DNA of 64,000 nt, taken from NCBI GenBank assembly GCA_002010305.1, contig MTND01000022.1, positions 110,128 to 174,127 on the forward strand, read 5' to 3'. The DNA is from Archaeoglobi archaeon JdFR-42 (GTDB lineage Archaea; Halobacteriota; Archaeoglobi; Archaeoglobales; JdFR-42). Position numbers and translations under genes: made by a program. Every line of letters starts with the position of its first letter. Positions within the stretch are counted from its first letter, which is position 1. The notes beneath the pieces were generated by a model, which ran no database searches, was not told the origin of the DNA, and worked only from the letters and a program-made list of their open reading frames with translations. Positions 22,263 to 55,843 of the stretch are shown piece by piece.

Positions 22263-22308
22263 TGTAAAGCTATGCTTTGCAAATTGTCAATGTAAATCCA
22301 CGATATTG
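22263..22308 (+). repeat. bipartite palindromic element, copy A (right arm of hairpin 2 decayed)
   Basis: TGTAAAGC-TAT-GCTTTGCA-AA-TTGTCAAT-GTAA-ATccacgata. Lies between the ferredoxin gene (-) and the 73-aa ORF (+). Confidence 0.7.
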
Positions 22309-22382
22309 TTATATTATATAGGATTTATAATTATAAATCCAATGCCAAGGTTAATATGAATATAGCTAATAGATATTAAATC

Positions 22383-22604
22383 ATGAAGCTTGAGGAGCTG
22401 GACAAGGAAATTGTGGATTTGATATCAAAAAGAATGGAAATACGCTTTAAGAATTCTCAGATAGAGTTTGATTTCAGCACAGTCGTAGATTATGCAACTG
22501 AAAAAGGTTTAGACACAGGAAAGATAAAAGAAGTATTTGAATTGCTAGAGAGGATGTTCAGGGACCGATATGATGAAATGCGTGGAAAAGGGGGCATTCC
22601 ATAG
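22383..22604 (+). CDS. small helical protein, weakly AroQ chorismate-mutase-like at both ends
   Basis: 73 aa. LEELDKEIVDLISKRMEI resembles helix 1 of AroQ, but the central part is missing. Bracketed by inverted copies of the bipartite repeat. Confidence 0.35.
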   Translation: MKLEELDKEIVDLISKRMEIRFKNSQIEFDFSTVVDYATEKGLDTGKIKEVFELLERMFRDRYDEMRGKGGIP

Positions 22605-22610
22605 GAAAAC

Positions 22611-22653
22611 ATATTGTCGGCTATGCTGACAAACAGTAAACCACTGGTTTACA
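22611..22653 (-). repeat. bipartite palindromic element, copy F (inverted relative to A)
   Basis: The + strand reads ATATTGTCGGC-TAT-GCTGACAA-ACA-GTAAACCA-C-TGGTTTAC. Starts 7 nt after the stop of the 73-aa ORF. Confidence 0.7.
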
Positions 22654-22695
22654 TTATGAAAAATTTTATATGCTATTCAGAAATCCTTTAAAATC

Positions 22696-23490
22696 ATGAA
22701 AAAGAGTACTTCCCATAAAATCCTCGCATTTATCCTCGCCTTCATTATGATTGGATCTGTACTTTCTGTATTAGCTCCATCTTCTCCATCCACTCGAGGA
22801 AGGGAGATTAAAAAGGAGGTGGCTTTTGAGAATTATAAAGATGCTTTTAGAATAATCCCCCCTAATATAGCCATATTTCAATACGTTAAAACCGATAATA
22901 TCAAGAATACTGATCTTGAATTATGGTTGATCCAGAACAAGTTGATAAGCTCCCAGGATGTCAGGGCTGCAATGGTTGTGGACTTTTACAATGGTTTGTG
23001 GGTAGAGCTGGTTAACAACAATAGAAGTGAAATTAAATATTCTTACTCTCGCGTTGTAGAGTATGGAAATTACTCCTTGAAGGACAACAATGGCATTGTT
23101 CTTGCAGATGAGGTCTCTCCTTACGTGTATGGTCCTCAACCAGTTGTGGAATACGTTCTGGATTTGATGGAAGACGGAAATCTCACGAATGCATATTCAG
23201 AGATATATGAAAAATACAATCTCTCTATTCTTGGAGATAACTATGATTACGTCCAGATACGAGCAGGAAACGTCACTAATGGATCGGACCTTTTGTTCGT
23301 GGGAATACGTTACACAGGAGATGGGCTGTATGAGAGGATTTCAGCGTATCATCTTTCAGAAGAAAATGTCATTCTGTTAGATACGGGAAACAAAACCAGA
23401 TTTCTGGAGTACAATCTTACTTACGTGGATGACTTCAGGGTAAAGAGAGTGGTTGGAGACTTTAAGTCTGTAATTGAGGACCCTCTGTAG
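22696..23490 (+). CDS. signal-anchored secreted protein rich in N-glycosylation sequons
   Basis: 264 aa. N-terminal hydrophobic anchor ILAFILAFIMIGSVLSVLA and 7 N-x-S/T sequons in the C-terminal half. Confidence 0.5.
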   Translation: MKKSTSHKILAFILAFIMIGSVLSVLAPSSPSTRGREIKKEVAFENYKDAFRIIPPNIAIFQYVKTDNIKNTDLELWLIQNKLISSQDVRAAMVVDFYNGLWVELVNNNRSEIKYSYSRVVEYGNYSLKDNNGIVLADEVSPYVYGPQPVVEYVLDLMEDGNLTNAYSEIYEKYNLSILGDNYDYVQIRAGNVTNGSDLLFVGIRYTGDGLYERISAYHLSEENVILLDTGNKTRFLEYNLTYVDDFRVKRVVGDFKSVIEDPL

Positions 23491-24726
23491 GTGGTCCCTC
23501 TGATTGTGGATGAAAATAAAGGGAACACGGTACTGGTGGAAGGACCAAACGAGTTTTATGTTAAAGAGGGTGCAGTATCGATTTATGGTTGTCCTGTAGA
23601 CACCCTCACCATTCCAGACGGGAAAGTTCTACCCTTGTATGTAGAAGAAGATGCGAAAATCGAACTGTCTCATCTAGGACACGTTATACCCATAAAAGGA
23701 AACTCAATTCCGGAGGAATGGAGTGAATTAAGTCAAAAAATTTCTCAAGGAGAATACAGGAAAATTATGTTTATAGGACATTCAGACACAGGAAAAAGCA
23801 GTTGCATAACTTATCTGGCTAATATGTGTGAAACTCAGGCAGCGGTGCTGGACTGTGATATTGGTCAGGCTGATATATCATATCCAGCATCAATCAGTCT
23901 ATCTGTAGTTGACTCAAAAATACCCAGTCTAGAATACTTGTCTCCTTTTGACTCATATTTCGTGGGGAAAACCTCTCCAGCAAAAATTGAATTACGGTGC
24001 CTTCGCGGTATCGCAAAGCTCATAAGAAAGGCAGAAAAAATAGCAGAAGTTGTTTTCATTGATACTACTGGGTGGATTTATGGTATAGGCGCCAGAGAAT
24101 ATAAGCTTGCTAAAATTAATGTGGTAAATCCCGATCTTATTGTTTGCATGAACAGGGATGTATATTACTTGGAAGGATTTGAGAAGGTTGTATTACCATC
24201 TTTTGTGGTTAAAAAGAGAGATAAAGTGGAGAGAGCAGAATACAGAGAACAAAAGTTCAAAAAAAGTCTAAATGGTGGGCGTACAATTACCATTCACTTA
24301 GATACTGTGACTGTAAGAAATTCAATGCTGTTTTGCGGAGAAGAACTTACCCAAGAAGAGACGGAAAGTCTGAAAAAGCTCATAGGGATTGACATTTTAT
24401 ATGGAGAGAAATCTGATGATTTCATCATAATGCTAACCGATGAACCCATAAATTTCAGAGAAATCTTTCAGGAGCTGAAAACAGTAAAATCTCTTTTTGA
24501 AGTAGCTGATGTGAGGATATATGCAATAGACCAGCTCAAATATCTCCTCCTAGGACTTAGAGGTGAAAATCATATAGGAATAGGTGTGATTACTGGCTTA
24601 GATCCGATGAAGAAAGAGTTGGAAATCTACACTCCCGTTCCTGAAGATGATATTAAAGTAGTTGAATTCGGCCTCATGAAAGTGAATGAAGAAGGTAAAG
24701 AGCTTGGTTTTATGGAATATTATTGA
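23491..24726 (+). CDS. Clp1/Grc3-like polynucleotide 5'-kinase
   Basis: 411 aa with P-loop GHSDTGKSS. The GTG start immediately follows the upstream stop. Confidence 0.65.
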   Translation: MVPLIVDENKGNTVLVEGPNEFYVKEGAVSIYGCPVDTLTIPDGKVLPLYVEEDAKIELSHLGHVIPIKGNSIPEEWSELSQKISQGEYRKIMFIGHSDTGKSSCITYLANMCETQAAVLDCDIGQADISYPASISLSVVDSKIPSLEYLSPFDSYFVGKTSPAKIELRCLRGIAKLIRKAEKIAEVVFIDTTGWIYGIGAREYKLAKINVVNPDLIVCMNRDVYYLEGFEKVVLPSFVVKKRDKVERAEYREQKFKKSLNGGRTITIHLDTVTVRNSMLFCGEELTQEETESLKKLIGIDILYGEKSDDFIIMLTDEPINFREIFQELKTVKSLFEVADVRIYAIDQLKYLLLGLRGENHIGIGVITGLDPMKKELEIYTPVPEDDIKVVEFGLMKVNEEGKELGFMEYY

Positions 24727-24741
24727 AAAGGCTGAGAGACT

Positions 24742-25140
24742 ATGCTGGAAGAGATCATTATATCAACTGAAAAGCGAGTTGAAATCGTGGATATCACCAA
24801 CATGGTGGATGAGCTTGTCAGAAAAAGTGGAGTTGAGAGTGGGATAGCAATCATCTGGACATTTCATACTACATCCGCCATTGTTGTCAACGAAGGAGAA
24901 CCAAGACTGATGAAAGATATTCTAAAAATGCTTGATCGAGTGATTCCTGAAGAAGGAGATTATGGTCATAATATTATAGACAGGAATGCTGACGCTCATT
25001 TGAGAGCCACCCTTCTGGGAGAATCCAGAGTTATCCCTGTAGAGAACGGAAGATTAAAGCTTGGAACATGGCAGAGGGTTCTCTTTATCGAGCTAGACGG
25101 ACCCAGAAACAGAAAAGTGGGAGTAACAGTTCTGGGATAA
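24742..25140 (+). CDS. YjbQ/UPF0047 family (secondary thiamine-phosphate synthase)
   Basis: 132 aa. Contains HTTSAIVVNE and DAHLRATLLG. Confidence 0.8.
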   Translation: MLEEIIISTEKRVEIVDITNMVDELVRKSGVESGIAIIWTFHTTSAIVVNEGEPRLMKDILKMLDRVIPEEGDYGHNIIDRNADAHLRATLLGESRVIPVENGRLKLGTWQRVLFIELDGPRNRKVGVTVLG

Positions 25141-25188
25141 AGAAGATTGAATAATTGATCACAGGTAATAGATTTTCATAGAAAATAC

Positions 25189-25231
25189 TGTAAGGCTATG
25201 CATTACAACTTGTCAATGTAAATTGACAATA
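25189..25231 (+). repeat. bipartite palindromic element, copy B (best preserved)
   Basis: TGTAAGGC-TAT-GCATTACA-AC-TTGTCAAT-GTAA-ATTGACAA-TA. Upstream of the radical SAM Ahb/NirJ-like gene. Confidence 0.75.
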
Positions 25232-25294
25232 ATGCAAAAAAAGGGATATATAGGATAGAGGAAATTGCTTAATAATATATAAGTGGTGTGGTGT

Positions 25295-26470
25295 ATGATA
25301 GGTCTTACTAAAATGGTGTGTGGAACGGCGACCGTCTCTGAAGTTCTGACATATGGAAGAGACAGTTCAAGAGTTCCTGCTAGGTTAATTCAATTTTCCA
25401 AAGATAATCGGCCTGTTACGGTATGGAATGTAACGGGTGCGTGTAATCTGGGGTGTATACACTGTTATGCCTCTGCTACGAGAAAACCAAGAAAGGGTGA
25501 ACTCACAACAGACGAAGCCAAGAAATTCATAGACGATCTTGCTGAAATGAAAGTTCCTGTTCTGCTGTTTTCTGGAGGAGAACCTCTTGTCAGAGAGGAT
25601 ATATTTGAATTGATACGGTATGCAACAGATAAAGGATTACGATGCTCTCTCTCTACTAATGGTACCTTGATAACTCCAGAAATTGCAGAAAGACTTAAAG
25701 AAAGTGGTGCTGTGTATATTGGGGTTAGTATAGACGGGCTTCCAAAAACAAACGATCGATTCAGGGGCAAGAAAGGAGCCTTTGAACTGGCTCTGAAAGG
25801 CATTGAGAACTCCAGAGAAGTTGGTCTGAACACTGGTATACGATTCACGGTAACCAAGTATAATTATAAAGAAGTGCCCGCAATAATCGATATTCTCGCT
25901 GAAAAAGATATTCCTCGATTCTGTCTGTACCATCTGGTCCCTTCAGGAAGAGCAAGTTTTGAGGATGATATCACCCCATCACAACGGCGTGAACTAGTAG
26001 ACTTTTTGTTTAACAGGACTATTGAACTCCATGATGAAGGGTATAAAACTGAGATATTAACGGTGGATAACCCGGCTGATGGTATTTATGTATATCTTAA
26101 GCTAAAGGAAATGGATGAAGATCTGGCTGAAAGCGCCTTCAAGCTTCTTGAGTTTAGAGGAGGAGACAACTCAGGTCGGAAAATTGCAGATGTTGATATG
26201 TATGGCAATGTTCATCCGAACCAGTTTTGGTGGGATTACACAGTTGGGAATATAAAGGAAAAAAGGTTCAGTGACATGTGGTTGGAGCCTGAGGATCCAC
26301 TTCTCAGACAGTTGAGAGAAAAAACCAAATACCTCAGAGGCGAAAAATGTGGGAGATGCATGTATAAAGAGATATGTGGCGGATTCAGGTTAAGAGCTCA
26401 ACGTGCTGGTGATCTATGGGGCGATGATCCTGACTGCTATCTAACTAAAAAAGAAATTGGTATTACCTGA
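25295..26470 (+). CDS. radical SAM/SPASM enzyme, AhbC/AhbD/NirJ-like (alternative heme biosynthesis family)
   Basis: [10 protein letters not shown] radical SAM cluster, a C-terminal [17 protein letters not shown]-like motif, and an N-terminal LTKMVCG...TYGRD segment like NirJ/Ahb proteins. Start chosen at the ATG after GGTG. Confidence 0.7.
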
Positions 26471-26511
26471 ACGCCAAAATAACTCGTGTCCATACACTGG
26501 GGGGATTATAT

Positions 26512-26787
26512 ATGAAAGTAAGGGCTCATTTATTCATTTCTGGTAGAGTTCAGGGAGTATTTTTCAGAGATAGTACCAGAAAAGAAGCTTTGAAGAGGGG
26601 TATTACAGGATGGGTCAGAAATCTTCCAGATGGAAGGGTAGAGGCCGTGTTCGAAGGAGATAAGGAGATGGTGGAAGATATGATTCGGTGGTGTCATAGA
26701 GGACCAGAAATGGCGAAGGTAATCTCCGTTAAAGTAATATGGGAAAATTATATAGGAGAATTCTCTAATTTTCGAATTGTTAGATGA
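26512..26787 (+). CDS. acyP: acylphosphatase
   Basis: 91 aa, [18 protein letters not shown]...[12 protein letters not shown]. Confidence 0.85.
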
Positions 26788-26852
26788 TTCAAGGCCATTA
26801 TTGTACACCTCACTTACTGCTTATCAACCAAGCTGACAACAATTTCAAAGAA

Positions 26853-28085
26853 TTAAAGAGATGGTAATATTCTGTTTATCTCTTCTTCCAGCTCTTCGAG
26901 ATCTTTTTTAACTCTGGCCACTCCGGTCTTCATGGCAGCTTCAGCAACTTTCAACGCCACTCTGGGTACAACTCTGGGGTCAGTGGGCTTGGGAATGATG
27001 TAATCCTCTCGCAACTCATCATTTTTCACTGTGCTTGCAATAGCGTATGCTGCAGCAATCTTCATCTCTTCGTTAATATTCATGGCCCTTACATCCAAGG
27101 CTCCTCGAAATATTCCAGGAAATCCGAGGACATTATTAATCTGATTTGGAAAATCTGATCTACCAGTTCCTACGATTCTTGCTCCCCCCTCTCTGGCATC
27201 ATCGGGCATAATCTCTGGATCTGGATTAGCCATCGCAAATATTATGGGATCATCAGCCATCTGTCTCACCATGTCCTTTGTGACCAGTCCGCCTACTGAA
27301 ACACCGATAAATACATCAGTTCCTTTCATAACTTCTGAAATAGATCCTGTAACTCCTTTTTTGTTAGTAATCTTGGCAATTTCCTCCTTAATGGGATTCA
27401 TATGTTCTTTTCTACCTTTGTAAATGGCTCCCAGTCTGTCACATAGAATAACATCTTTTACACCCATTGAAAGGAGTATTTTGGTAATGGCAACTCCTGC
27501 AGCTCCTGCACCACTGATCACAACTTCTATTTCGTTAAACTTCTTGCCTGTAATCTTTAAAGCGTTGATAAGCCCGGCCAGAGTAACAACCGCAGTTCCA
27601 TGCTGATCGTCATGGAAGACAGGGATGTCAAGCTCTTTTTTCAAGCGTTCCTCGATCTCAAAACATGCTGGTGCTGCAATATCTTCTAAATTAATCCCGC
27701 CAAATACAGGAGAAATGAGCTTTACTGTAGTAACTATTTCGTCCACATCCTTGCTGTTGATACAGATAGGAAAAGCATCAATACCGGCAAAATTCTTGAA
27801 AAGTATGGCTTTTCCTTCCATCACTGGAAGAGCTGCTTCCGGGCCTATATCACCGAGACCTAGCACAGCGGTACCGTTAGTAATCACTCCAACCATATTA
27901 CCTTTGATGGTATACTCATACACATCCTCGACTCGCGTAGCAATCTCTTTACATGGCTCTGCAACACCAGGTGTGTAGATCAGACTGAGATCCTCCTGGG
28001 TACTGCAGGGAACCTTACAAAAAACGCCAAGTTTCCCCCTATATTTTCTGTGCAAATCCAGTGCCTCTTCCCTCAATTTTGTCAT
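26853..28085 (-). CDS. NAD(P)-dependent malic enzyme (short form)
   Basis: 410 aa. Contains YTPGVAEPC, FHDDQHGTA and GAGAAG. Confidence 0.9.
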   Translation of the reverse strand: MTKLREEALDLHRKYRGKLGVFCKVPCSTQEDLSLIYTPGVAEPCKEIATRVEDVYEYTIKGNMVGVITNGTAVLGLGDIGPEAALPVMEGKAILFKNFAGIDAFPICINSKDVDEIVTTVKLISPVFGGINLEDIAAPACFEIEERLKKELDIPVFHDDQHGTAVVTLAGLINALKITGKKFNEIEVVISGAGAAGVAITKILLSMGVKDVILCDRLGAIYKGRKEHMNPIKEEIAKITNKKGVTGSISEVMKGTDVFIGVSVGGLVTKDMVRQMADDPIIFAMANPDPEIMPDDAREGGARIVGTGRSDFPNQINNVLGFPGIFRGALDVRAMNINEEMKIAAAYAIASTVKNDELREDYIIPKPTDPRVVPRVALKVAEAAMKTGVARVKKDLEELEEEINRILPSL

Positions 28086-28177
28086 GTTTTTCCCCCGAAA
28101 GGATAATTCTTATTATATCCTGACAACTTACTTTTCAATAGATTTTAATTTTTCGTTTTTCTACGAGGTGAAATAGA

Positions 28178-28696
28178 ATGAAAATATGCGTGCTTAGGCT
28201 GGGACACAGACCAGAAAGGGATAAAAGAATAACCACTCATGTGGCTCTGACAGCAAGGGCTTTCGGATGTACCGGGATGTTTCTGGCTGGAATGGATGAG
28301 AAAATAAGAGAGAGTATTAATAGAGTTAACGAGAACTGGGGAGGAAAATTCTTCGTTGAATTTGTAAAAGACTGGAAGACTTTGATTAGAGAGTGGGATG
28401 GTATAGTAATACATTTAACCATGTATGGGATACCACTTCTCAGGATTCAGGAGAAAATACAACCAGAGGAGCCAATACTGGTCGTGGTTGGAGCTGAAAA
28501 AGTCCCAAAAGAAGTGTATGAGATGGTGGACTACAATGTATCTATAGGGTTGCAACCACACTCTGAAGTAGCTGCACTGGCAGTATTTCTCGACAGGATA
28601 ACCGATGGAAAAGAGTTCACCATAACTTTCCCTGATGGGAAAATGAAAGTAGTACCCACCGAGAAAGGGAAAGTAGTTGAAAAATATGATGAATAG
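28178..28696 (+). CDS. trm56: tRNA (cytidine56-2'-O)-methyltransferase
   Basis: 172 aa, [26 protein letters not shown]. Confidence 0.8.
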
Positions 28697-28711
28697 AAGG
28701 AGCTTGACGAA

Positions 28712-29770
28712 ATGACAGAAATTGGATCCGTGCTTGTTATCGGAAACAACGTTAGGCACATAGTTGCATCTGCGAAAAGAGCTGGATTTTATGTTGTTGC
28801 AGCAGATAAATATAGAGATGCAGATCTATTTCTGTATGCTGATGAGGTTGCAAGTCTCAGAGAAGCGCCAGCACTAGCCAATGAAGTGGACGGAATCGTC
28901 TTGGGGAGTGGGTATGAAACATACAATATTGGTGGAAATATACTTGGGAATAATCCCTCTAGGGCAAAAGAAGTGGTTGATAAAAGGAAACTATGGAAAA
29001 AGCTAGATAATCTTGGGTTTGTCCAACCAGAAATTGTTAAAGGGCTGGAAGAGGAAGAATTAGGTGTGCTGAAACCCAGAGTGGGATCAGGAGGATCCGA
29101 TAGCCGGATTGTGTATGGAAATGTGTTTAATGGGAAAAAGCCGGGGAATGAATGGATACTACAGTCTTATGTTAAAGGAACTCCATGTAGTGTATGTGTA
29201 ATCTCAAACGAAGATTCTGTTGCAGCGGTTTCTGTTAACAGACAGCTAATCGGGGTAAAATGGCTTGGTCAGAAAAATCCTCTTGGGTATTGTGGAAATC
29301 TGTCTCCATTTCTTGAACGTCTTGATGAACTCAGTAATCTTGGAGAGGAAGTGGTCGAGAGCCTGTCTCTGGTAGGATGCAATGGAGTTGATATAATAAT
29401 GGGGGATCAATTGTATGTGGTAGAGGTCAATCCAAGGTTTCAGGGAAGTCTGGATTCCATTGAAATGGCCTATCAAACGAACCTTTTCCATCTTCATGTC
29501 AAGGCATGTCAGGGAGAAAGAATTGAAAGGCAAAATTTAAGGGATTATGTGGTGTTCTCTGCTAGAGGTATTCTATTTACAGAAAAAGGTGGAGTGGTAA
29601 AACGAGATTTTCTAGGACATCCCAACACCATGGATGTACCTTTAAAAGATAGCAAGATTGAAGCCGGAAATCCAGTTATTTCTGTAGTTGTATCGGATTA
29701 TAGTGAGAAAAAAGCAATGGATAAACTTAAGAACCTTGCCGGGTTTTTCAGAGAGACTATTTTCAAGTAG
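28712..29770 (+). CDS. ATP-grasp superfamily enzyme (COG2232-like)
   Basis: 352 aa. VLKPRVGSGG and YVVEVNPRFQGS ATP-grasp motifs. Confidence 0.6.
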   Translation: MTEIGSVLVIGNNVRHIVASAKRAGFYVVAADKYRDADLFLYADEVASLREAPALANEVDGIVLGSGYETYNIGGNILGNNPSRAKEVVDKRKLWKKLDNLGFVQPEIVKGLEEEELGVLKPRVGSGGSDSRIVYGNVFNGKKPGNEWILQSYVKGTPCSVCVISNEDSVAAVSVNRQLIGVKWLGQKNPLGYCGNLSPFLERLDELSNLGEEVVESLSLVGCNGVDIIMGDQLYVVEVNPRFQGSLDSIEMAYQTNLFHLHVKACQGERIERQNLRDYVVFSARGILFTEKGGVVKRDFLGHPNTMDVPLKDSKIEAGNPVISVVVSDYSEKKAMDKLKNLAGFFRETIFK

Positions 29771-29842
29771 TTATCTGGGCTTGGCTATCATGGATGAATT
29801 TGCACTAAGTTTAAATTGGTTGAAGTATACAATATATGTTGT

Positions 29843-29885
29843 TGCAAGTATATAACTTACAATTTGTCAACAGGAGTTGACAATA
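29843..29885 (+). repeat. bipartite palindromic element, copy C (abuts the tfe start codon)
   Basis: TGCAAGT-ATATA-ACTTACA-AT-TTGTCAAC-AGGA-GTTGACAA-TA followed directly by ATG. Confidence 0.75.
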
Positions 29886-30401
29886 ATGCAATTGGCAGAA
29901 CCGGAAGAACTGATCTTGGAAGAATTTATCAAGAGAGTTGCAGGTGAAGAAGGACTGATCATATTTCATAATGCTCTCTCGAGAGAATTCACCGATGAAG
30001 AAATATCCATCAAAACAGGGCTAGATCTCAACTCAGCTCGGAGAGCCCTATTTGCCCTTTATGAATCAGGACTTGCCGAATATAGAAGAGAGAAAGACGA
30101 GGATAGTGGATGGCTTACCTACTATTGGAAAATCATTCCTGAGAAAGGAAAAGCTGTCTTGAAAAGAGAACTGGAAAAAGCAAAAAGAAATTTTAAGCTT
30201 AAGATCGAATTTGAAAGCAGTAATATGTTCTATTACTGTAAAAATGGCTGTGGCAAGATTTTATTTGAAGACGCCATGTCCTTCAATTTTGTCTGCCCAA
30301 ACTGTGGCTCTTCTTTGGATTTTGTAGATAACACAAAACTCTTGGAATTCCTTGAAGAAGAAATACAGAAAATAGACAATATGTTAAAATCATTGATGTA
30401 A
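29886..30401 (+). CDS. tfe: transcription factor E (TFE alpha)
   Basis: Winged helix plus zinc ribbon CKNGCG...CPNCGS. The ATG at 29886 is preferred over the track TTG at 29877. Confidence 0.85.
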   Translation: MQLAEPEELILEEFIKRVAGEEGLIIFHNALSREFTDEEISIKTGLDLNSARRALFALYESGLAEYRREKDEDSGWLTYYWKIIPEKGKAVLKRELEKAKRNFKLKIEFESSNMFYYCKNGCGKILFEDAMSFNFVCPNCGSSLDFVDNTKLLEFLEEEIQKIDNMLKSLM

Positions 30402-30436
30402 GCCTGATATATCTGAGGAATGTATTTATCGGTTTA

Positions 30437-31747: not shown

Positions 31748-31771
31748 CTATCTTCGCCTTTAAATTTTTTA

Positions 31772-32410: not shown

Positions 32411-32535
32411 AAATGTCTCAGCCTCCGTTAATGGGTAAATGTTTTAGGATATGATTTTCTTAAAGGTTTTTCTGTATATGTTCCAGACGTTACTCATATC
32501 CGTTCGATATGGCTATGATTTGGGTGTATAGTCTT

Positions 32536-34401: not shown

Positions 34402-34414
34402 TGAAAGAATGTTA

Positions 34415-39480: not shown

Positions 39481-39522
39481 CTGTTATTGTACGCTAACAG
39501 ACTGTAAATCGGGGATTTACAA
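39481..39522 (-). repeat. bipartite palindromic element, diverged copy E
   Basis: The + strand reads CTGTTA-TTGTACGC-TAACAG-A-CTGTAAATC-GGGG-ATTTACAA. Lies between pyk (-) and the actin-fold gene (+), next to a TTTTAAATAT TATA-like box. Confidence 0.5.
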
Positions 39523-43635: not shown

Positions 43636-43643
43636 CTGACGTA

Positions 43644-45112: not shown

Positions 45113-45160
45113 AATGCTACCCTCCGCAGTTATACCTCCATACCACCAACGTATTAAAAA

Positions 45161-46072: not shown

Positions 46073-46115
46073 AAAAACATAGCCTTAAATAACATTTATA
46101 ACTCTTTGGTATAAG

Positions 46116-47734: not shown

Positions 47735-47737
47735 GAA

Positions 47738-48745
47738 ATGAGTAAAACAGGGAAGCTCATGTTTACTTCCATCTCTATTAGCATACTAACTCTCGCCCTT
47801 ATTCTGTTCCTGACAGTAGACAGGTCAACATATGAAGTGTTGAAGAGCTTCAATATGCTATTTCTCTTTGTTGCAATCATTTTTCATTTGCTGGCTTGGG
47901 CTTCCTGGAGTTTTAGAATCAAATATCTCAGCAGAGGAATCGGAAAAGATGTTACTGTGAAAGAGTCTTTTGAAATTCTGGTTCCAAGTCTGTTTGTTGC
48001 TGCTATCACTCCATCATCCATTGGAGGAGAACCCCTCCGGATTTACATGCTCTCAAAAAAAGGACTCTCTTACGGAGAGGCAACTGCAATCATTTTGGGT
48101 GGAAGGTTGCTAGATTTTCTGTTTGTCATATCTCTGGCTCTCGTCTCCACTTTAATTCTGGGTTTTTCTACTAAAAATGTTCTGTTTCGAAATATGCTGA
48201 TAATTGCCCTGTTTTTTGTATTTTTGGGGCTATTTTTCTTTATCCTTGGGGTTGTAAAACCAGAGTCAATTGACAGAATATTCAGAAAATTCTCATTTAT
48301 CCTCAAAAGGATGGGAAAGGATGTGAAATACTACAGTAATAAACTGATACAGGAAATGGAGAATCTTAACAAAGCCCTAAAAGTGTTATTGAAAGAAGGA
48401 AAGGGAGAGATTATGCTTGGTATCTTGGGCACAGTAGGATACTGGGTGTTTGATCTTATAGTACCATGGGTATTGCTTCTTGGCTTGGGAATTGAAGCTA
48501 GTTTGATACAGGTGATGGTCATACAGCTTTTCCTCTATATTGTGATTCTAGCTCCAATAACACCCGGGAGTAGCGGACTAGCTGAGACGAGTGCCAGTGT
48601 TATGTTCGCTTCATTAGTAAAACCCTCTCTTTTGGGTGTATTTGTGGTAATGTGGAGGTTTGTCTTGTATTATTTTAACATGCTGGCCGGTTTGGTTATG
48701 GGTATGAAGGTAGTAAAGGAAAGTGAGTGGTTTAAGACAAGGTGA
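47738..48745 (+). CDS. UPF0104 / lysylphosphatidylglycerol-synthase-TM-like (flippase-like) membrane protein
   Basis: 335 aa and polytopic. Contains TPSSIGGEPLRIYML and PITPGSSGLAE. Confidence 0.7.
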   Translation: MSKTGKLMFTSISISILTLALILFLTVDRSTYEVLKSFNMLFLFVAIIFHLLAWASWSFRIKYLSRGIGKDVTVKESFEILVPSLFVAAITPSSIGGEPLRIYMLSKKGLSYGEATAIILGGRLLDFLFVISLALVSTLILGFSTKNVLFRNMLIIALFFVFLGLFFFILGVVKPESIDRIFRKFSFILKRMGKDVKYYSNKLIQEMENLNKALKVLLKEGKGEIMLGILGTVGYWVFDLIVPWVLLLGLGIEASLIQVMVIQLFLYIVILAPITPGSSGLAETSASVMFASLVKPSLLGVFVVMWRFVLYYFNMLAGLVMGMKVVKESEWFKTR

Positions 48746-48749
48746 GAGG

Positions 48750-49403
48750 ATGGGGATTGTTAAAAATACAGGCATCATTCTAGCACTAGATGTGGTGGAT
48801 AGAGCAAAAGCTATAGAAATTGCAAAGAAAACGAGGGAATATGTGGATGCTATAAAGGTTGGATATCCTCTAGTGTTGAATACATCCATTGATGTGATAT
48901 CAGAAATAAGTAAAGTACAAAATGTAATTGCTGATTTCAAAATTGCGGATATACCATATGTCAGCAGGATAATTGCAGAAACAGCCCTTGAACATAGGGC
49001 AATGGGTGTAATAGTTCATGGATTTGTGGGTAGAGATGTGCTTCTGGCTATTAGAAATGTGACAGAAGCCTCTGATGCAGAGATGTACGTGGTAACAGAA
49101 ATGAGTCATCCTGGAGCGAGGGATTTCATAATGGAGCATACACAAGCTATGGCTGAAATGGCCGTTAAAGTTGAGGCAGATGGTGTTGTGGCTCCAGCAA
49201 CACGTCCAGAAAGAATCAAGCTCATCAGAGAAATTGTTGGAGATAGAAAGATCATCTGTCCCGGTGTTGGCGCACAGGGAGGAGAGATAAAGAAAGTTCT
49301 CTCTTACGGAGGAGATTTTGCTATTGTAGGTCGAAGAGTTTATAATTCGCCAGACCCTGCTGGTGAGGTCAGAGCGTTAATAAGAGAGATAAAAGGTAAA
49401 TGA
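48750..49403 (+). CDS. pyrF: orotidine 5'-phosphate decarboxylase
   Basis: Contains ILALDV, DAIKVG and ADFKIADIP. The ATG at 48750 follows GGTGAGAGG. Confidence 0.85.
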   Translation: MGIVKNTGIILALDVVDRAKAIEIAKKTREYVDAIKVGYPLVLNTSIDVISEISKVQNVIADFKIADIPYVSRIIAETALEHRAMGVIVHGFVGRDVLLAIRNVTEASDAEMYVVTEMSHPGARDFIMEHTQAMAEMAVKVEADGVVAPATRPERIKLIREIVGDRKIICPGVGAQGGEIKKVLSYGGDFAIVGRRVYNSPDPAGEVRALIREIKGK

Positions 49404-49594
49404 ATAAGAAAGTGGAATTTTCCAGTTTGGTGAGATATTCAGATCTTTCAATTTTTTCATGAGGAGAGATCCGCCTACACAAATCCCGGATGGATAAAAG
49501 ATTTCGAAAAAGTTCAGCAATTTTGAACTTCTCATAATGCAGGGTCAGCAGATAGGAAGAATGAGTATAAGAATGGGGATGGGAATGAATTAAC

Positions 49595-52003
49595 TCATTT
49601 TAACAACCTGTCCAGAAATACCACGAAATCCTCTGCCACACCTTCTTCTCCGGTGTTCAGATTGTTCACACAAAAAGGGCATGGAGTTATTATTTTCTCT
49701 GCTCCAACCTCTCTCGCCTGTTTAATCCTCTCTCTTGCAATGGCAGTACTCACTTTTGGATCATAAGCCCTCACTCCTCCACCAGCCCCACAGCAAAACG
49801 AGTACTCTCTGTTCCTTTCCATCTCCACAAAGTCTATATTCTGTATTTTTTTCAGTATTTCTCTGGGTTCTTCATATATCTCAGCATGTCTTCCCAAATG
49901 ACATGGATCATGATAGGTAATTCTGATATTATCGTCACTTTCCATCTCAGGGATCTCGCTGGCTAGAAATTGCACAATATGTTTAATATTGAATTCTCTA
50001 CCCGTCAGTGCTGGCAAATCCTGAGAAAGGGTTTTATAACACCCCGCACAGGATGTTACGATCAGTGGAGGATTTATATTCTCAAAAGCCTCGACGAGCT
50101 TTCTGGCATTTTTTTCGGCCACATCGTCCATACCGACTCGTAGGAGTATGGACGCACAGCATGGCTCGTTTTCGAGCATGGTGAAGTCTATACCCAGCTT
50201 TTTAAGCAATGAGATAGTAGCTTTTGCAATCTCTTTCTCCCTCAATGTTGCCATGCATCCTGCGAAATACAGTAGGGTGTTTTTTCTGTTTTTTATCACT
50301 TCAAAAGCATCATCTAGCCTCTTTTCCTCACCAAATGGGTTGTTTTTAACCAGTATGTTCTCTCCAAATCTGGTAAATTTCTCTGGAAACATAATATTCT
50401 TCCTCCAGTAATGAACCATATTTCCTATATCAATTCCGGTCAGGCAGACCTTTTCACACAGCTTGCAGGTAGAACAGTAATGGAATATATCTCTACTACC
50501 ACCATAACCGCTTGCTATGACCTTGGCCCTAGGAGTATATGCTTCATTTTTTGTCACCACATATATGGGGCATTTTCGACAGAACCCACAGAATGTGCAT
50601 TTTATTAGCTCTCCAAGTCCATCTGGAAAATCAGGAGGAGAATCGAGGATAGTCTCGACCTCATCAGGTATATCCATTTTTCCAGGATTCAGGATTCCAT
50701 CTGGATCGAAAACTTTTTTAAGAGCTTTTATAGTCTCAATTTGCTCTTTTTTGAAGTATCTTGCCCTGATCAATCCCATACCATGCTCTGCAGAGACAGT
50801 TCCTCCTATAGCTCTCACAAATTCGTGAAATTCCTCATAGAATTTTTTCATATTATTTTTCATATCTGAGTTATGAATATCGATAGAAGTGGTTACGTGG
50901 ACATTGCCATCTCCAAAATGACCGAAGGATGCATTGAATATTCCATATTTATCCGATAATTCTTTAACTTTATCCATAAGTTGGGGTATTTTTGAGATGG
51001 GCACTGCTACATCTTCTACCACAGGTACAGCTCTGTAGCCTCTGGCAATATTGGATACAGCTGGATATCCAAATCTCCGAATCTTCCATAATTCATCTCT
51101 CTCTCTTTCATTCTTAGCTACGATAAATCCATCTAGATGATCCTTTATCTTTTCAAAATCTCCATCAGAAAGTTCTAGCAGAACAAGGATCCCCTCTTCT
51201 ATCTGAAGGTTAAAGATGTCTCTAACAGCTTTCAGAAAACCTGGGTCCATCACTTCGATTATATGTGGAAGGACACCTTCTCCATACAGGGCTGTTATGA
51301 AATCAGCAATCTCTTCATAACTGTTGAAATATGATGTTGCGGTGACGATATCCATTTCTCTTGGCAATAGCCTGAGATAAGCTTTTGTTATTACGCCAAA
51401 CACACCTTCAGTGCCAACAAAGAGATGGGTTAGATCCAGACCTTCAGAGTTTTTAAGGGCCATCGAACCAGTCTGGATTATCTCCCCCTTGCCGGTAACA
51501 ACTTCCAGCCCAAGAATATAGTTTCTCGTTGTTCCGTATCTAACACCCCTCATTCCACTGGCATTGGTGGATATCATCCCTCCGATAGTACATACACTGC
51601 TACTCCCTGGATCAGGAGGAAATAGAAGATTGTAATCCTTCAAAAGGGAGTTAAGATCCTCCAGAACTACTCCAGGCTCTACTACAGCAACCAGGCTTGT
51701 TGGATCCACGGAGATAATCTTGTCCATCCTTGAAAGATCCATGATTATGCCACCTGCTACGGGAATAACTGCTCCGGTAACACTAGTACCAGCTCCTCTG
51801 GGGGTGACAGGTATTTTACGGTTTCTTGCAAATTTTATGATTCTGACCACTTCATCGGTAGATTCAGGGAATACGATGGCCTCTGGACTCCCAGTGAATA
51901 TAGAGGCATCAAAGGAATAGGGTTTGGTGTATTTAACCCCTTCATACACCCTGTCTCTTCCAAGTTCCTTTTCCAGCATTTCAATAAAATTCAAATTGGC
52001 CAT
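49595..52003 (-). CDS. fused FAD-linked oxidase (GlcD/D-lactate dehydrogenase-like) plus 2x[4Fe-4S] and CCG-domain (GlcF/HdrD-like) oxidoreductase
   Basis: About 800 aa. N-terminal FAD PCMH domain (PRGAGTS), ferredoxin motifs CTFCGFCRKCP and CSTCKLCEKVC, and CCG motifs (CCASI, FCCGAGGG). The likely start is MANLNF. Confidence 0.8.
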   Translation of the reverse strand: MANLNFIEMLEKELGRDRVYEGVKYTKPYSFDASIFTGSPEAIVFPESTDEVVRIIKFARNRKIPVTPRGAGTSVTGAVIPVAGGIIMDLSRMDKIISVDPTSLVAVVEPGVVLEDLNSLLKDYNLLFPPDPGSSSVCTIGGMISTNASGMRGVRYGTTRNYILGLEVVTGKGEIIQTGSMALKNSEGLDLTHLFVGTEGVFGVITKAYLRLLPREMDIVTATSYFNSYEEIADFITALYGEGVLPHIIEVMDPGFLKAVRDIFNLQIEEGILVLLELSDGDFEKIKDHLDGFIVAKNERERDELWKIRRFGYPAVSNIARGYRAVPVVEDVAVPISKIPQLMDKVKELSDKYGIFNASFGHFGDGNVHVTTSIDIHNSDMKNNMKKFYEEFHEFVRAIGGTVSAEHGMGLIRARYFKKEQIETIKALKKVFDPDGILNPGKMDIPDEVETILDSPPDFPDGLGELIKCTFCGFCRKCPIYVVTKNEAYTPRAKVIASGYGGSRDIFHYCSTCKLCEKVCLTGIDIGNMVHYWRKNIMFPEKFTRFGENILVKNNPFGEEKRLDDAFEVIKNRKNTLLYFAGCMATLREKEIAKATISLLKKLGIDFTMLENEPCCASILLRVGMDDVAEKNARKLVEAFENINPPLIVTSCAGCYKTLSQDLPALTGREFNIKHIVQFLASEIPEMESDDNIRITYHDPCHLGRHAEIYEEPREILKKIQNIDFVEMERNREYSFCCGAGGGVRAYDPKVSTAIARERIKQAREVGAEKIITPCPFCVNNLNTGEEGVAEDFVVFLDRLLK

Positions 52004-52322
52004 CTCTCTCAACGGTAGTTGTTGGATAAGTAAATAAGCTTTCTGGGATTGATGCGACTTAACACACATCCTATTGGCTGATATCTAGAAACATATAATG
52101 AGATTGAATTTTTGTAATTCAGGAGATATTTCAGGTAATTCTCTTTCAATATATCTATCACATCTAAACATAGTGCTGTAAAAGCTATGAATTAAAATCA
52201 GTAAATTATAAGGTAAACAAATTTTGTTTCTAAATTCCTTATTTCCAAAAACTATTTAAATCAATCATTTAGATAACTGCTTGGGATGAATAGGTCATTC
52301 GGATAACTATGGAGGTGATGGG

Positions 52323-53180
52323 TTGAATAGATTCCTGATACTGGTAGTTCTCGTTGCATCTATTGCTGTAGCTACTGCCGAGAACAGCTGTGTAGATTGC
52401 CATAAATCTGTATCTGCTTTTAAACCTGAAGAAATGAGGTTCAATGAAATAAGAAAAGAACACCTTGAGAGGGGTGTATCCTGTTCCCTTGAATGTCATG
52501 AGGACCTCCTTTCAAAATTGGCAAAGAGCAATTACATTCAATGGAGTTCGTCAAAACATGCAATCAGTGGTGTAACTTGTGATAGGTGTCATGGAGGTAA
52601 TCCTGAAACAAGGGATAAGGAAAAGGCACATACTGGGGTTCTCAGGGCCTCAGACCCCGCTAGTTCAATTTATTACATGAACATTCCCTCGACGTGTGGT
52701 GTATGCCATGAGAAAGAATTAGCGGAGTTTACTTTATCAGAGCATTATAAGAAGCTTGAGAACGTTGAATTAGCCCCAACTTGCTCTACCTGTCATCTAC
52801 CTCATGGATTTAAGATCCCAGAGACCACTAACATGGCTGAAATCTGTCAGAATTGTCACAATGGAAATATTGGAGCAGATCCTGAAGTCCCACCTAAAGC
52901 ACAGGAATTACTCAAAGAAAGTTTTGAGCTTAAATCATTGATCAACAAAATGAAAGCTGAAGGAAAAGACGGAGAGAACATTAAGAAAGCGGAGCAAATC
53001 TTGGATACTTTTCCGGTTACTTGGCATGAGTTTAACATAGAAAGACTTGAGGCCGAGATTGATGCAGTGAAGAGTCTCTTAGGGGTTGAAGAAGAGGCTA
53101 AATCAGTTCCAGGTTTTGAGCTCTCAATCATAATTGCAGCCTTTGCTACAGTTATGCTGTTAAGGAGGTTCACAAAATGA
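52323..53180 (+). CDS. multiheme c-type cytochrome (5 CxxCH plus 1 CxxxCH) with signal peptide and PGF-CTERM-like anchor
   Basis: Heme motifs CVDCH, CSLECH, CDRCH, CGVCH, CSTCH, CQNCH. The C-terminus is VPGFELSIIIAAFATVMLLRRFTK. TTG start 5 nt after GGAGGTGA. Confidence 0.85.
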   Translation: MNRFLILVVLVASIAVATAENSCVDCHKSVSAFKPEEMRFNEIRKEHLERGVSCSLECHEDLLSKLAKSNYIQWSSSKHAISGVTCDRCHGGNPETRDKEKAHTGVLRASDPASSIYYMNIPSTCGVCHEKELAEFTLSEHYKKLENVELAPTCSTCHLPHGFKIPETTNMAEICQNCHNGNIGADPEVPPKAQELLKESFELKSLINKMKAEGKDGENIKKAEQILDTFPVTWHEFNIERLEAEIDAVKSLLGVEEEAKSVPGFELSIIIAAFATVMLLRRFTK

Positions 53181-53716
53181 AGGTTTTCTTGCCCTTTCTG
53201 ATTCTTTTTCTTGTAGTCTATGTAGTTTCTGCCACTCCAGAATACGGTGCGAAAGAAAGCAGAAATTGCCCGTTCTGTCATGTGTCAGGAGATTATACTA
53301 GGCTTAATGAAAGGGGGAAATACTACCTTCAGCATAACTATTCTTTTGAGGGATTTATAGAAAAACCCAGAGAAATCAAAAGTAAAGGTGAAGAGCTTTA
53401 TGTAGAATACTGTGAAGGATGCCATGGAAAGAAAGGTGAGAATTTTAATATCGCTGGCCAGGGCAGTGCTGCAAAGGATGCTATAGAAAACGGGAGGATG
53501 CCACCTGGCACTAAGCTGGATCTGAGTGAAAACGATTTGAATGAACTTGTGGCATATATCGATTCACTGGGTGATCAAACATCGGTAAAGGAATCAAGCG
53601 AATCTGAAGTTAGTTATGAGAGTCTGGGCTTTCACATGCCCACATGGGATGTTGGTACCATGGTCGTCCTGATACTTTTTGCTACAATGTTCTTTGTTAG
53701 ATACTGGAGGCTATAG
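53177..53716 (+). CDS. diheme c-type cytochrome with C-terminal TM anchor
   Basis: 179 aa. CPFCH and CEGCH with a GRMPPG Met-ligand region. 4-nt overlap with the upstream gene. Confidence 0.75.
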   Translation: MKVFLPFLILFLVVYVVSATPEYGAKESRNCPFCHVSGDYTRLNERGKYYLQHNYSFEGFIEKPREIKSKGEELYVEYCEGCHGKKGENFNIAGQGSAAKDAIENGRMPPGTKLDLSENDLNELVAYIDSLGDQTSVKESSESEVSYESLGFHMPTWDVGTMVVLILFATMFFVRYWRL

Positions 53717-53727
53717 GGGGTGGGATT

Positions 53728-53994
53728 ATGATAGTGGAGAAAATTGAGAAAGTGGAGAGAAGCCCAAGAGCGGTGAAAATTGGAAGTATAGCTCTTATAG
53801 TTGAGGTAAGTATAGCAGCCCTTTTAAGCTTGTATCTCATTTATCTGCTTGCCCAGCCTCTGACACCTTATGAGATGAGTGTAAGAGTTGGTATGATTCT
53901 ATCTGGTATATTTTTCACAGGTGCAGCCATTGTCTACACCGTCGTGAAAGGATTACTTGATGATGAGTTTGTGACAGTTCTGGAGGAGGATTGA
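53728..53994 (+). CDS. small two-TM membrane protein
   Basis: 88 aa with two hydrophobic helices, embedded in the Rieske/cyt b operon. Confidence 0.5.
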   Translation: MIVEKIEKVERSPRAVKIGSIALIVEVSIAALLSLYLIYLLAQPLTPYEMSVRVGMILSGIFFTGAAIVYTVVKGLLDDEFVTVLEED

Positions 53995-53995
53995 G

Positions 53996-54463
53996 ATGGA
54001 ACGAAGAAACTTCTTAAAACTCATAGGAGGAATATTTGGAGCCATCCTTGCCATCGATATAACTGGAACTCTTATCAGGTTCCTCTGGCCTACAACTACT
54101 GGAAGTGTAACCTCTGGAGAAACTAAGGTCCTTGAGAAAGGAGAGAAACTCAACGTATGGGAGGCAAAACACTTCAATTTCATGGGTAAAGCTGCTATCA
54201 TCGTCAGAACCCCATCTGGTTATCATGCCTATGGAGCCATATGCACACATCTCGGGTGCATAGTCTCTCAAGAACTTACAGATGACGACCTTATGATATG
54301 TCCCTGCCACATCGGCCTCTACGATCCGGAAACAGGCGATGTGGTGGCAGGTCCACCACCGAAACCTCTTCCAGTTATAACAATTGAGGAAAGGGATGAT
54401 GGAGTTTACGCCCTTGGTTGGGAGGATCCAGAGTATCTAAAATCCCTTTCAATGTATGCTTGA
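53996..54463 (+). CDS. Rieske [2Fe-2S] protein with Tat signal
   Basis: 155 aa. Contains MERRNFLK, CTHLGC and CPCHIG. Confidence 0.85.
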   Translation: MERRNFLKLIGGIFGAILAIDITGTLIRFLWPTTTGSVTSGETKVLEKGEKLNVWEAKHFNFMGKAAIIVRTPSGYHAYGAICTHLGCIVSQELTDDDLMICPCHIGLYDPETGDVVAGPPPKPLPVITIEERDDGVYALGWEDPEYLKSLSMYA

Positions 54464-54473
54464 GGTGCCCATT

Positions 54474-55145
54474 ATGATGAAACAGCTTTACGAGTGGATT
54501 GATAAAAGGACTAAATTGAGTAAATACTGGGAACCTATCGCTAGACATCCTGTCCCATCTCATGTATCTGATGGAGTTAGAACAAATCCGGTTTATTGTC
54601 TCGGTGGAATAGCATTTTTGTGCTTCATAATACTGGTTATCACTGGAATGTTCTTGGCCATGTATTACAAACCGACACCAGATGAAGCCTATGAGAGTGT
54701 GCGGTATATCATGGAAGAAGTACCTATGGGGGCTTTCATCAGAAGTGTCCATAGTTGGGCAGCAAACATGATGATTGCAGCAGTAATGCTCCATATGATT
54801 AGAGTGTACTTTACTGGAGCCTACAAGCCTCCAAGAGAACTTAACTGGGTAATAGGAGTCGTCCTGTTCTTGATCACCACAGCGTTTGGCTTCACTGGAT
54901 ACTTGCTTCCGTGGGATCAGTTAGCGTACTGGGCGACGACGATTGGAATTCAGATAACCTCAGGCATTCCAGTAGTTGGACCTTATGTAGGAAAACTGTT
55001 GATGGGTGGAGGTGAAATTGGACCCAATACTCTTTCGCGATTCTACGCAGTCCACACCATCATATTACCCCTCACCCTTGCTCTGCTGCTGGGAATCCAC
55101 TTTTTATTGGTTAGAATACATGGGATCTCCGGGAGGTATTTGTGA
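54474..55145 (+). CDS. cytochrome b6-type (N-terminal half of cytochrome b)
   Basis: 4-TM pattern with conserved His pairs (SVHSWAANMM...MLHMIRV; FYAVHTIILP...IHFLLVRIHG). The ATG follows GAGGTG. Confidence 0.9.
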   Translation: MMKQLYEWIDKRTKLSKYWEPIARHPVPSHVSDGVRTNPVYCLGGIAFLCFIILVITGMFLAMYYKPTPDEAYESVRYIMEEVPMGAFIRSVHSWAANMMIAAVMLHMIRVYFTGAYKPPRELNWVIGVVLFLITTAFGFTGYLLPWDQLAYWATTIGIQITSGIPVVGPYVGKLLMGGGEIGPNTLSRFYAVHTIILPLTLALLLGIHFLLVRIHGISGRYL

Positions 55146-55549
55146 TGAGAGTTAGAGGTCTTTCGTTCTTTCCGAATTTTCTGCTCAGAGAAGTTGTAAT
55201 AATGTTTACTACGGCTGCGAGTATATTTCTCCTTGCATCTATTTTTCCAGCCAGTCTCCTAGATCCAGCGAACCCGTTTGAAACGCCAAAACCCATATTT
55301 CCTGAATGGTACTTCCTTTACGTTTATGGCTTTCTGAAATTCTGGACATGGGATATTGGGCCCATTAAAGCCAAGACAATGGGTATAGTGATCTCTATGG
55401 TATTTTTCCAGCTTCTGCTGATTCTTGTTCCATTTATTGACAGGAATACTGAGGTAAATCTGAAAAAGCGACCCATTGCTGTGATCCTCGGGGTGATAAC
55501 CATTGCGGCGGTGCTCTTCTTTACAATCTACGGAATCGTTTTCGAGTAA
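55142..55549 (+). CDS. cytochrome b C-terminal half / subunit IV (PetD-like)
   Basis: 135 aa with the PEWYFLYVYGFLK motif. Start overlaps the cyt b6 stop. Confidence 0.8.
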   Translation: MMRVRGLSFFPNFLLREVVIMFTTAASIFLLASIFPASLLDPANPFETPKPIFPEWYFLYVYGFLKFWTWDIGPIKAKTMGIVISMVFFQLLLILVPFIDRNTEVNLKKRPIAVILGVITIAAVLFFTIYGIVFE

Positions 55550-55801
55550 AAGCCATCTGGCAACAAAATTTTTAGCCCTTATTTTGATGACTATAGCAGT
55601 CGACAGAGCATTTTCAGCTGATATCTGGGGCTTTTTAATTCTTTTTGGTTTTTCAGGTGTATTAGCTCTTTATCCATTTATTAAAAAGTAACCTGTCCTT
55701 TGTTAGGTGACCCTGTTTTGTGTGTTGGATATATCCTAAAGTGTATCTTATAGCAGTCATGTGATGATTGTTCGTAGCATTCATCAGGATTAATTTTGGA
55801 T

Positions 55802-55843
55802 ATTGTCAGCAAAAACTGACAATTTGTAAAACATAGTTTTACA
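55802..55843 (-). repeat. bipartite palindromic element, copy D
   Basis: The + strand reads ATTGTCAG-CAAAAA-CTGACAA-TT-TGTAAAAC-ATA-GTTTTACA. Lies in the 650-bp gap between the Rieske/cyt b operon and the tetraheme-FeS-NrfD operon. Confidence 0.75.

Follow-up and report, generated by a model that had tools for sequence, protein, structure and literature searches.

We analysed a 64,000-nucleotide stretch of the genome of Archaeoglobi archaeon JdFR-42 (assembly GCA_002010305.1, contig MTND01000022.1, positions 110,128 to 174,127; hereafter the window), in which an initial annotation made from the sequence alone had described six intergenic elements of ~45 nt, each built from two adjacent hairpins. 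These sites are probably copies of a small, non-autonomous, lineage-specific dispersed repeat of ~45 bp, of the kind represented by repetitive extragenic palindromic (REP) sequences and MITEs (miniature inverted-repeat transposable elements), that spread recently in this lineage. Among the roles proposed at the outset, that of a REP- or MITE-like mobile palindrome fits best, as copies occur on at least six contigs, are absent from relatives (including at three orthologous sites), sit between convergent genes and at gene 3′ ends, and form tandem arrays. Within a single Archaeoglobi genome, the element has increased in number through insertions into AT-rich intergenic DNA and through tandem duplication at individual sites.

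A shared double-hairpin architecture

When the exact bodies were written in the direction from hairpin 1 to hairpin 2 and aligned in one orientation, all six window copies showed a common layout consisting of a 19-nt palindrome, a 2-nt linker, and a 19–20-nt palindrome. Hairpin 1 has the form TGTAAAnC-loop-GnTTTACA and hairpin 2 the form TTGTCAAn-loop-nTTGACAA. The pattern TGTAAANC-N-GNTTTACA matched twice in the window compared to 0.00 matches expected, and TTGTCAR-N-YTGACAA matched three times compared to 0.01 expected; hairpin 1 of copy F was located in a search separate from these two patterns. Alignment of more copies revealed that the conserved unit reaches ~3 nt beyond the body on both sides (..TAT-body-TAT..), and its ends, ATATTGTAAA and TTGACAATAT, are therefore themselves inverted repeats (9/10 complementary). 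The whole unit comprises four copies of an (A)TTGT[A/C]AA motif in alternating orientation, which form two adjacent palindromes with centres ~21 bp, or two helical turns, apart. By itself, the half-site TTGT[A/C]AA is frequent, with 54 occurrences outside the known copies.

All six sites lie where the initial annotation had placed them and conform to the single 19+2+19/20 layout. Their intergenic location was likewise confirmed and has a chance probability of ~1e-6 for six of six, given that non-coding DNA makes up ~10% of the sequence. The family is thus real as described, but the stem details of individual copies required correction: hairpin 2 is decayed in copy A and diverged in copy E, hairpin 1 has one mismatch in each of copies B and C, and hairpin 2 has one mismatch in copy F.

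Additional copies and tandem arrays in the same genome

A covariance model derived from the six window copies, used to scan beyond the window, recovered more copies on five other contigs of the same genome. The family now totals 17 independent loci in ~190 kb of this genome, at least 11 of them outside the window, with model scores of about 37–70 bits. Four copies found by the window-derived model were not forced by the search pattern (L099 2387–2439, 45 bits; L099 3036–3087, 37 bits; L115 3993–4038, 36 bits; and L206 5344–5396, 36 bits). In the window and 15 kb of its flanks the six-copy model detected nothing further, and a second model built from 17 copies and run without filters returned only weak candidates in the window, at 1762–1796, 21510–21547, and 26798–26843 (E-values of 1.5–2), and no further solid copy.

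A pattern scan of metagenomes from the Joint Genome Institute (JGI) gave seven matches on five contigs of assembly Ga0180887. A protein from one of these contigs is also encoded on RSFX01000015.1 and in sample 3300037583, so this assembly samples the same organism as the window. The window sequence itself is identical in Ga0314848_000042 (JGI metagenome 3300037583) and RSFX01000008.1 (GCA_003935005.1) and is also present in run SRR3723048. Candidatus Polytropus marinifundus, an Archaeoglobi metagenome-assembled genome from crustal fluid of the Juan de Fuca Ridge that was obtained from SRR3723048, carries the same bc1-like and multi-haem cytochrome operons as the window (PMC6474303). The genome analysed here is therefore very probably that of Ca. 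P. marinifundus.

Two loci are tandem arrays. Upstream of argB, on another contig of the same genome, there are three to four 45-bp units (L120 9777–9970, the same array as L115 5175–5320) that are 100% identical, indicating recent duplication. The NCBI assembly is exactly one 45-bp unit longer here than two JGI assemblies, and a Logan contig stops inside the array; this difference in unit number reflects either true copy-number variation or assembly collapse. The second array, located after Cbf5, decays along its length.

Absence from relatives and from databases

Scanning ~190 kb of the organism's own genome, and its relatives, as the initial annotation had suggested, yielded the additional copies described above in the former and none in the latter. 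The covariance model gave 0 matches in 355 kb from 47 loci of other Archaeoglobi, 0 matches in 10 further loci, and 0 matches in 13 kb of contigs from the closest relative; overall, model scans found no copy in ~415 kb of other Archaeoglobi. A scan of viral contigs also returned 0 copies. Across 185,579 species-representative genomes, a strict pattern had no Archaeoglobi match and gave only chance matches and an unrelated Nostoc repeat; its sole match in the Methanosarcinales (L056) lies inside coding sequence and was rejected. In Rfam, no family reached the gathering score anywhere in the window, and at E≤1 the only hit in positions 22000–30000 was an unrelated weak one to sR5.

The Nostoc matches merit a separate comment. 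The strict pattern TTACAANTTGTCAR..YTGACAA also catches a repeated palindromic element in many Nostoc and Nostocaceae genomes (L005, L008, L009, L018, L076, and others), some of which contain two copies 400 bp apart. This cyanobacterial element is unrelated to the archaeal family.

Filled and empty orthologous sites

Differences between filled and empty sites were seen at TFE and at copies B and F, in comparisons between genera rather than strains. Copy C (29843–29883, plus strand, 60.8 bits, with its single hairpin-1 mismatch) lies between the TFE TATA box (TTTAAAT, 29810–29816) and the TFE start codon (29886). In two relatives, whose TFE proteins are 69% (L123) and 64% (L077) identical at the amino-acid level, the arrangement is TTTAAAT, 25–26 nt, and ATG, without the element. 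The window leader keeps the TTTAAATTGGTTGAAGT...ATATATG block, followed by the 41-nt element plus TA and then the shared ATGCA(A/G) start, with 43 extra bases between the conserved TATA box and the ATG compared to the two relatives. This alignment was made by hand, as MAFFT misplaced the insertion. With its TATA box 32–33 nt before the ATG in the two relatives, TFE was apparently a leaderless gene in the ancestor. In the window, 76 nt separate the old TATA box from the ATG, and a TATATAA sequence (29849–29855) in the hairpin-1 loop of copy C is 37 nt before the ATG, which suggests that the loop of the element may now supply the TFE promoter.

Copy B (25189–25229, plus strand, 66.7 bits) lies between the YjbQ stop codon (25140) and an AhbD-like radical SAM gene (ATG at 25295), with GATATATA ~17 nt downstream. 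Copy F (22614–22653, minus strand, 57.2 bits; hairpin 1 GTAAACCA-G-TGGTTTAC and hairpin 2 TTGTCAGC-ATA-GCCGACAA) is 9 nt past the stop codon of a 73-aa open reading frame (ORF) and touches the AF_2048_N promoter block TTATGAAAAATTTTATATGCTAT. The closest relative (L208), with 82% identity in the radical SAM protein, retains the order AF_2048_N...YjbQ–radical SAM but has neither copy B nor copy F. Its spacer between YjbQ and the radical SAM gene is 58 nt shorter, and it keeps the conserved AF_2048_N promoter block, which in the window starts exactly at the edge of copy F. The malic-enzyme neighbourhood of the closest relative is non-syntenic, and hence no site was compared there.

Pairing is retained while the arms drift

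In the six window copies, 90.6% of cells pair compared to 82.0 ± 1.8% in shuffles, and none of 500 shuffles scored as high. In 17 copies, the corresponding values were 91.9% and 84.4 ± 1.0%, and again none of 500 shuffles attained the real value. One stem position, for example, is GC in five copies, UA in five, CG in three, and AU in two. Sliding the 3′ partners by 1–3 columns reduced pairing to only 23–48%. The compensatory stem changes reported for the six copies are thus borne out with both data sets. The arms remain complementary while their sequence drifts, and therefore pairing ability or strict dyad symmetry has been kept rather than a fixed sequence, as the initial annotation had correctly inferred.

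Minimum-energy folds recovered both hairpins with 37 °C energies well below those of shuffled sequences. The predicted stability of the whole unit as RNA was −8 to −19 kcal/mol at 37 °C and −0.4 to −7.7 kcal/mol at 65 °C. Pairing is probably important when the unit is bound by protein or transiently single-stranded, or else template switching between the arms may keep them matched. Where mismatches could form G.U pairs, the strand differs between copies: it is one strand in copy A and the opposite strand in copies C and Q. The latter two share TGCAAGT...ACTTACA with an identical C.A mismatch, a likeness that is only suggestive, and the apparent groupings C/Q, F/H, E/L, and A/B/N are anecdotal only, as a permutation test for subfamily structure was not significant (see below).

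Genomic context of the 17 loci

The three remaining window copies lie in different settings. Copy A (22263–22303, plus strand, 64.5 bits), with hairpin 1 TGTAAAGC-TAT-GCTTTGCA containing one T.G pair and a hairpin 2 in which the left arm TTGTCAAT is intact and the right arm decayed, occupies the divergent spacer between a ferredoxin gene (minus strand) and the 73-aa ORF (plus strand); TTATATTATATA follows ~5 nt after it. Copy E (39481–39521, minus strand, 57.0 bits), with a perfect hairpin 1 (TGTAAATC-CCC-GATTTACA) and the diverged hairpin 2 (CTGTTA...TAACAG), is in the divergent spacer between pyruvate kinase (minus strand) and salactin (plus strand), 5 nt upstream of TTTTAAATA. Copy D (55803–55843, minus strand, 63.3 bits), in which both hairpins are perfect, follows a bc1-like operon (the gene for the C-terminal part of cytochrome b ends at 55549) and precedes the next cytochrome c operon (starting at 56110).

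Flanking genes at all loci were taken from contig look-ups and checked with Pfam. Four loci are divergent (A, E, Q, and S), nine tandem (F, B, C, D, G, H-J, K, L, and P), and three convergent (O, N, and R), with locus M left outside these classes; the 4/9/3 distribution is close to the 1:2:1 expected of untargeted intergenic insertion. Among the convergent loci, O lies in an 82-nt spacer between a SLOG-family gene and a winged helix-turn-helix (wHTH) gene, N between an ORF and a luciferase-like gene, and R 4 nt past the FTR stop codon, facing glutamate dehydrogenase. The stop codons of the FBPase and TtuA-like genes fall inside copies G and P, and one copy begins 8 nt after the copA stop codon. 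Relative to the downstream gene, the two orientations occur in a ratio of 7:5.

The neighbours (TFE, salactin/pyruvate kinase, AhbD-like radical SAM, AF_2048_N, cytochrome c, argB, copA/thioredoxin, Cbf5/wHTH regulator, Sm protein, FBPase, FTR/glutamate dehydrogenase, DUF362, and DUF72) have no common function. An enrichment for redox and haem genes, perceived when only the window was considered, disappears once all loci are counted and resulted from the gene content of that region. The reported adjacency to TATA-like boxes stands: copies A, B, F, and E and the Cbf5/wHTH array end 3–17 nt upstream of one, a placement that is expected of surviving insertions in a genome with 100–150-nt spacers.

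Several observations concern particular copies or neighbouring features. Copies A and F, an inverted pair, bracket a 310-bp segment (window 22263–22653) that holds only the 73-aa ORF, the N-terminus of which is weakly chorismate-mutase-like (CM_2, below the Pfam cut-off). Upstream of AF_2048_N, the closest relative has neither the 73-aa ORF nor the elements, and the two copies may enclose and carry a captured or decaying fragment of a gene. The reverse strand of copies A and B (22261–22290 and 25187–25216) reads like a sigma-70 promoter (TTGACA, 18 nt, TACAAT; 11/12 positions); as the host is an archaeon, this resemblance is presumably a coincidental by-product of the motif.

Elsewhere in the window, Rfam identified a tRNA gene at 2396–2507 (minus strand, 48.9 bits) that ARAGORN missed; its length of 112 nt presumably means that it includes an archaeal intron. 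The malic enzyme encoded at 26853–28085 (minus strand) shares 66–71% identity with Bacillota enzymes (Tumebacillus, Effusibacillus), and in archaea it has a single close relative (86%). This pattern suggests horizontal gain from bacteria. Just left of the window start, L093 11500–17000 contains short hypothetical ORFs together with a fragment resembling HicB and faint remains of a DUF772 transposase, the ends of which are not element-like. No element copies occur in this region, which has the appearance of a small foreign or decaying gene island.

Evidence weighing against a dispersed repeat

A number of results run counter to the interpretation of these sites as a recently spread REP- or MITE-like repeat. 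Copy number is modest, at an estimated 20–40 per genome. Assemblies from different samples are identical across the window, and within the population we observed no presence/absence polymorphism, with the argB array as the sole exception. The empty-site relatives have only 64–86% protein identity, and their flanks can be aligned only at TFE and AF_2048_N. Tree-like subfamily structure, or linked variation, among copies was not significant in a permutation test (p 0.07–0.29), so the copies by themselves do not demonstrate descent by copying. The flanks match a shared ..TAT-body-TA(T/A).. consensus and lack copy-specific direct repeats or a clear target-site duplication. The ~190 kb of this genome had no transposase, Y1 or other, and no other partner among its called genes, and no parent autonomous insertion sequence (IS) with matching ends was found in this DNA; solo half-sites were not beside transposase genes. 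The hairpins are weak at the likely growth temperature, as the 65 °C energies given above for the whole unit indicate, and the promoter-proximal copies 3–17 nt upstream of TATA boxes are compatible with an activator site.

Alternative explanations

The alternative that survives best, which we nevertheless regard as unlikely, is that the sites are operators or upstream activating arrays at which a dimeric or tetrameric protein, for example of the winged-helix or Lrp-like type, binds both palindromes on the same face of the duplex and controls adjacent promoters. The four alternating half-sites with their two-turn spacing, the placement of A, B, F, E, and the Cbf5/wHTH array relative to TATA-like boxes, and the three to four units upstream of argB are all as expected for such a binding site. 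In a compact genome, however, surviving insertions also tend to fall just upstream of the TATA box, and the complete identity of the array units points to recent duplication. Moreover, the three convergent loci have no room for a promoter, other copies lie on or just past stop codons, and the neighbouring genes share no function. The sites are also missing at the orthologous TFE, radical SAM, and AF_2048_N promoters of the closest relative, where the core promoters are conserved. Finally, non-consensus stem positions co-vary, and recognition of duplex DNA by a symmetric dimer needs no such covariation. The more specific proposal of an operator for a redox/haem regulon is unsupported, as the sites are not restricted to promoters and their putative targets are neither coherent nor conserved. 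At some promoters, it is possible that a copy acts as a binding array for a dimeric protein.

The presence of wHTH genes beside three loci (L205 14167–14529, L099 2457–2768, and window 1235–1621) has been counted in favour of an operator. One shares an operon with the Sm protein gene and is flanked by copies O and Q (L099 2393–3081), another is 30 nt downstream of the H-J array (L205 14167–14700), and the window gene is 140 nt upstream of the weak, decayed candidate at 1762–1796. The three proteins are mutually dissimilar, so the adjacency could be due to chance.

We consider it improbable that the hairpins function as structured RNA, whether as a 5′ leader, as a site of 3′ stabilisation or processing, or as a small RNA. 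Base-pair covariation in both helices, folds that reproduce both hairpins well below shuffles at 37 °C, and the location of many copies in probable 5′ or 3′ untranslated regions would all suit an RNA function. Yet copies occur in both orientations relative to flanking transcription units (7:5), the G.U-compatible mismatches are on opposite strands (A compared to C and Q) and so favour neither strand consistently, Rfam gave no match even at E≤1, predicted stability is marginal at 65 °C, and C/D and H/ACA boxes are lacking. One of the roles initially put forward, a strand-specific leader or small RNA, is therefore unlikely given the orientation ratio, the Rfam result, and the marginal stability.

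That these are chance palindromes or ordinary AT-rich promoter sequence of no shared origin is very improbable: the elements are AT-rich like archaeal promoter regions and the half-site is common, but two to three pattern matches compared to 0.00–0.01 expected per window, model matches that score about 37–70 bits here yet are missing from 415 kb of relatives, and identical geometry in every copy refute this explanation. C/D-box, H/ACA, attC, dif, origin recognition box (ORB), and CRISPR identities were rejected on the grounds of missing boxes, wrong geometry, or dispersal of the copies in both orientations.

Proposed mechanism of spread

As no mobilising enzyme and no clear target-site duplication were found, we infer the mechanism by which the dispersed repeat is copied. 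A DNA enzyme whose gene lies elsewhere in the genome would act in trans and recognise the unit in its hairpin or cruciform form. A single-strand, hairpin-recognising Y1/HUH transposase of the IS200/IS605 type would be the likeliest such enzyme; to our knowledge, this is the only such class of hairpin-recognising enzyme in Archaea. Copies survive where they leave a gene or core promoter unbroken, that is, just upstream of TATA boxes, after or over stop codons, or between convergent genes, and an insertion between the TATA box and the start codon would normally be lost, with copy C being an exception. Arm-to-arm template switching may help to keep the arms matched. Side effects on genes would be expected, as at copy C, which parts TFE from its old TATA box and would offer a TATA-like loop sequence in its place.

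A bolder version of this model, less likely still than the operator, is that this is the first REP-like system in Archaea. A hairpin-recognising enzyme encoded elsewhere in the genome, either domesticated or autonomous, would maintain and copy the bipartite AT-rich double hairpin, and some copies would have become mobile promoter modules, with copy C replacing the TFE promoter by its own loop TATA and copy Q doing likewise for the Sm-protein operon.

Comparison with known repeats

Like bacterial REP sequences, REP doublets forming hairpins (REPINs), and bacterial interspersed mosaic elements (BIMEs), which are mobilised by RAYT (TnpA_REP) enzymes, the archaeal element is short (20–45 nt), extragenic, and hairpin-forming with compensatory stem changes; it exists as tens of copies in one lineage, often at gene 3′ ends or between convergent genes, forms adjacent or tandem composites, and lacks target-site duplications. 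In size, placement, covariation, and the missing target duplications, REPs and REPINs come nearest to it. The element differs in that its ends are (T)ATTGTAAA and TTGACAAT(A) with no GTAG or CGTC in the consensus, its stems are AT-rich rather than G+C-rich, its host is an archaeon, its copy number is low, its unit consists of two different tandem hairpins rather than two inverted copies of one REP, and no cognate transposase was found among the called genes examined. Y1 transposases in Archaea belong only to the IS200 subclass, and the RAYT type has not been found there (PMC6006769). The archaeal "REPs" of the RepRanger paper count any intergenic palindrome and include no comparable family.

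The element resembles prokaryotic MITEs (Sulfolobus SM1–SM4, Correia, and ERIC) in being non-coding, non-autonomous, and intergenic, in having terminal inverted repeats (ATATTGTAAA and TTGACAATAT), and in that such elements can displace or supply promoters. Sulfolobus MITEs number 25–44 copies per genome, a range similar to that of the element, and archaeal MITEs are several times longer and have target duplications (PMC10969869). At ~45 bp compared to ~80–350 bp, the element is smaller than MITEs, has no recognisable target-site duplication and no parent IS that we could find, and has a body made entirely of two hairpins instead of ends around an unrelated core.

With the subterminal hairpins of IS200/IS605 elements it shares short imperfect palindromes of the kind read as single-strand hairpins, the lack of target duplication, and occurrence in Archaea, and IS200/IS605 elements need no terminal inverted repeats. 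Unlike them, it has no TnpA or TnpB gene beside any copy and its cleavage and target tetranucleotides were not identified; the link would be by analogy. Archaeal winged-helix and Lrp operators have similar dyad-symmetric half-sites, with two boxes about two helical turns apart and often just upstream of the B recognition element (BRE)/TATA box, but the element is also found at convergent and 3′ positions, is not conserved at orthologous promoters, has arms that co-vary, and adjoins an incoherent gene set. The element works like a REP or mini-MITE, with membership in either family not established.

Significance

Small palindromic repeats are as such ordinary, but this one forms a clean family that had not been described. 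Much is known about the very short REP-like repeats of bacteria; the non-autonomous elements that we know from Archaea are larger MITEs. In practical terms, the repeats break short-read assemblies, alter intergenic lengths, and could serve as strain markers. The TFE site shows a tolerated insertion between the TATA box and the leaderless start codon of an essential factor. A 45-bp family with filled and empty sites, tandem amplification, and arm covariation, in an MCR-carrying subsurface lineage of Archaeoglobi, offers a defined system in which to ask which agent copies elements of this type in Archaea.

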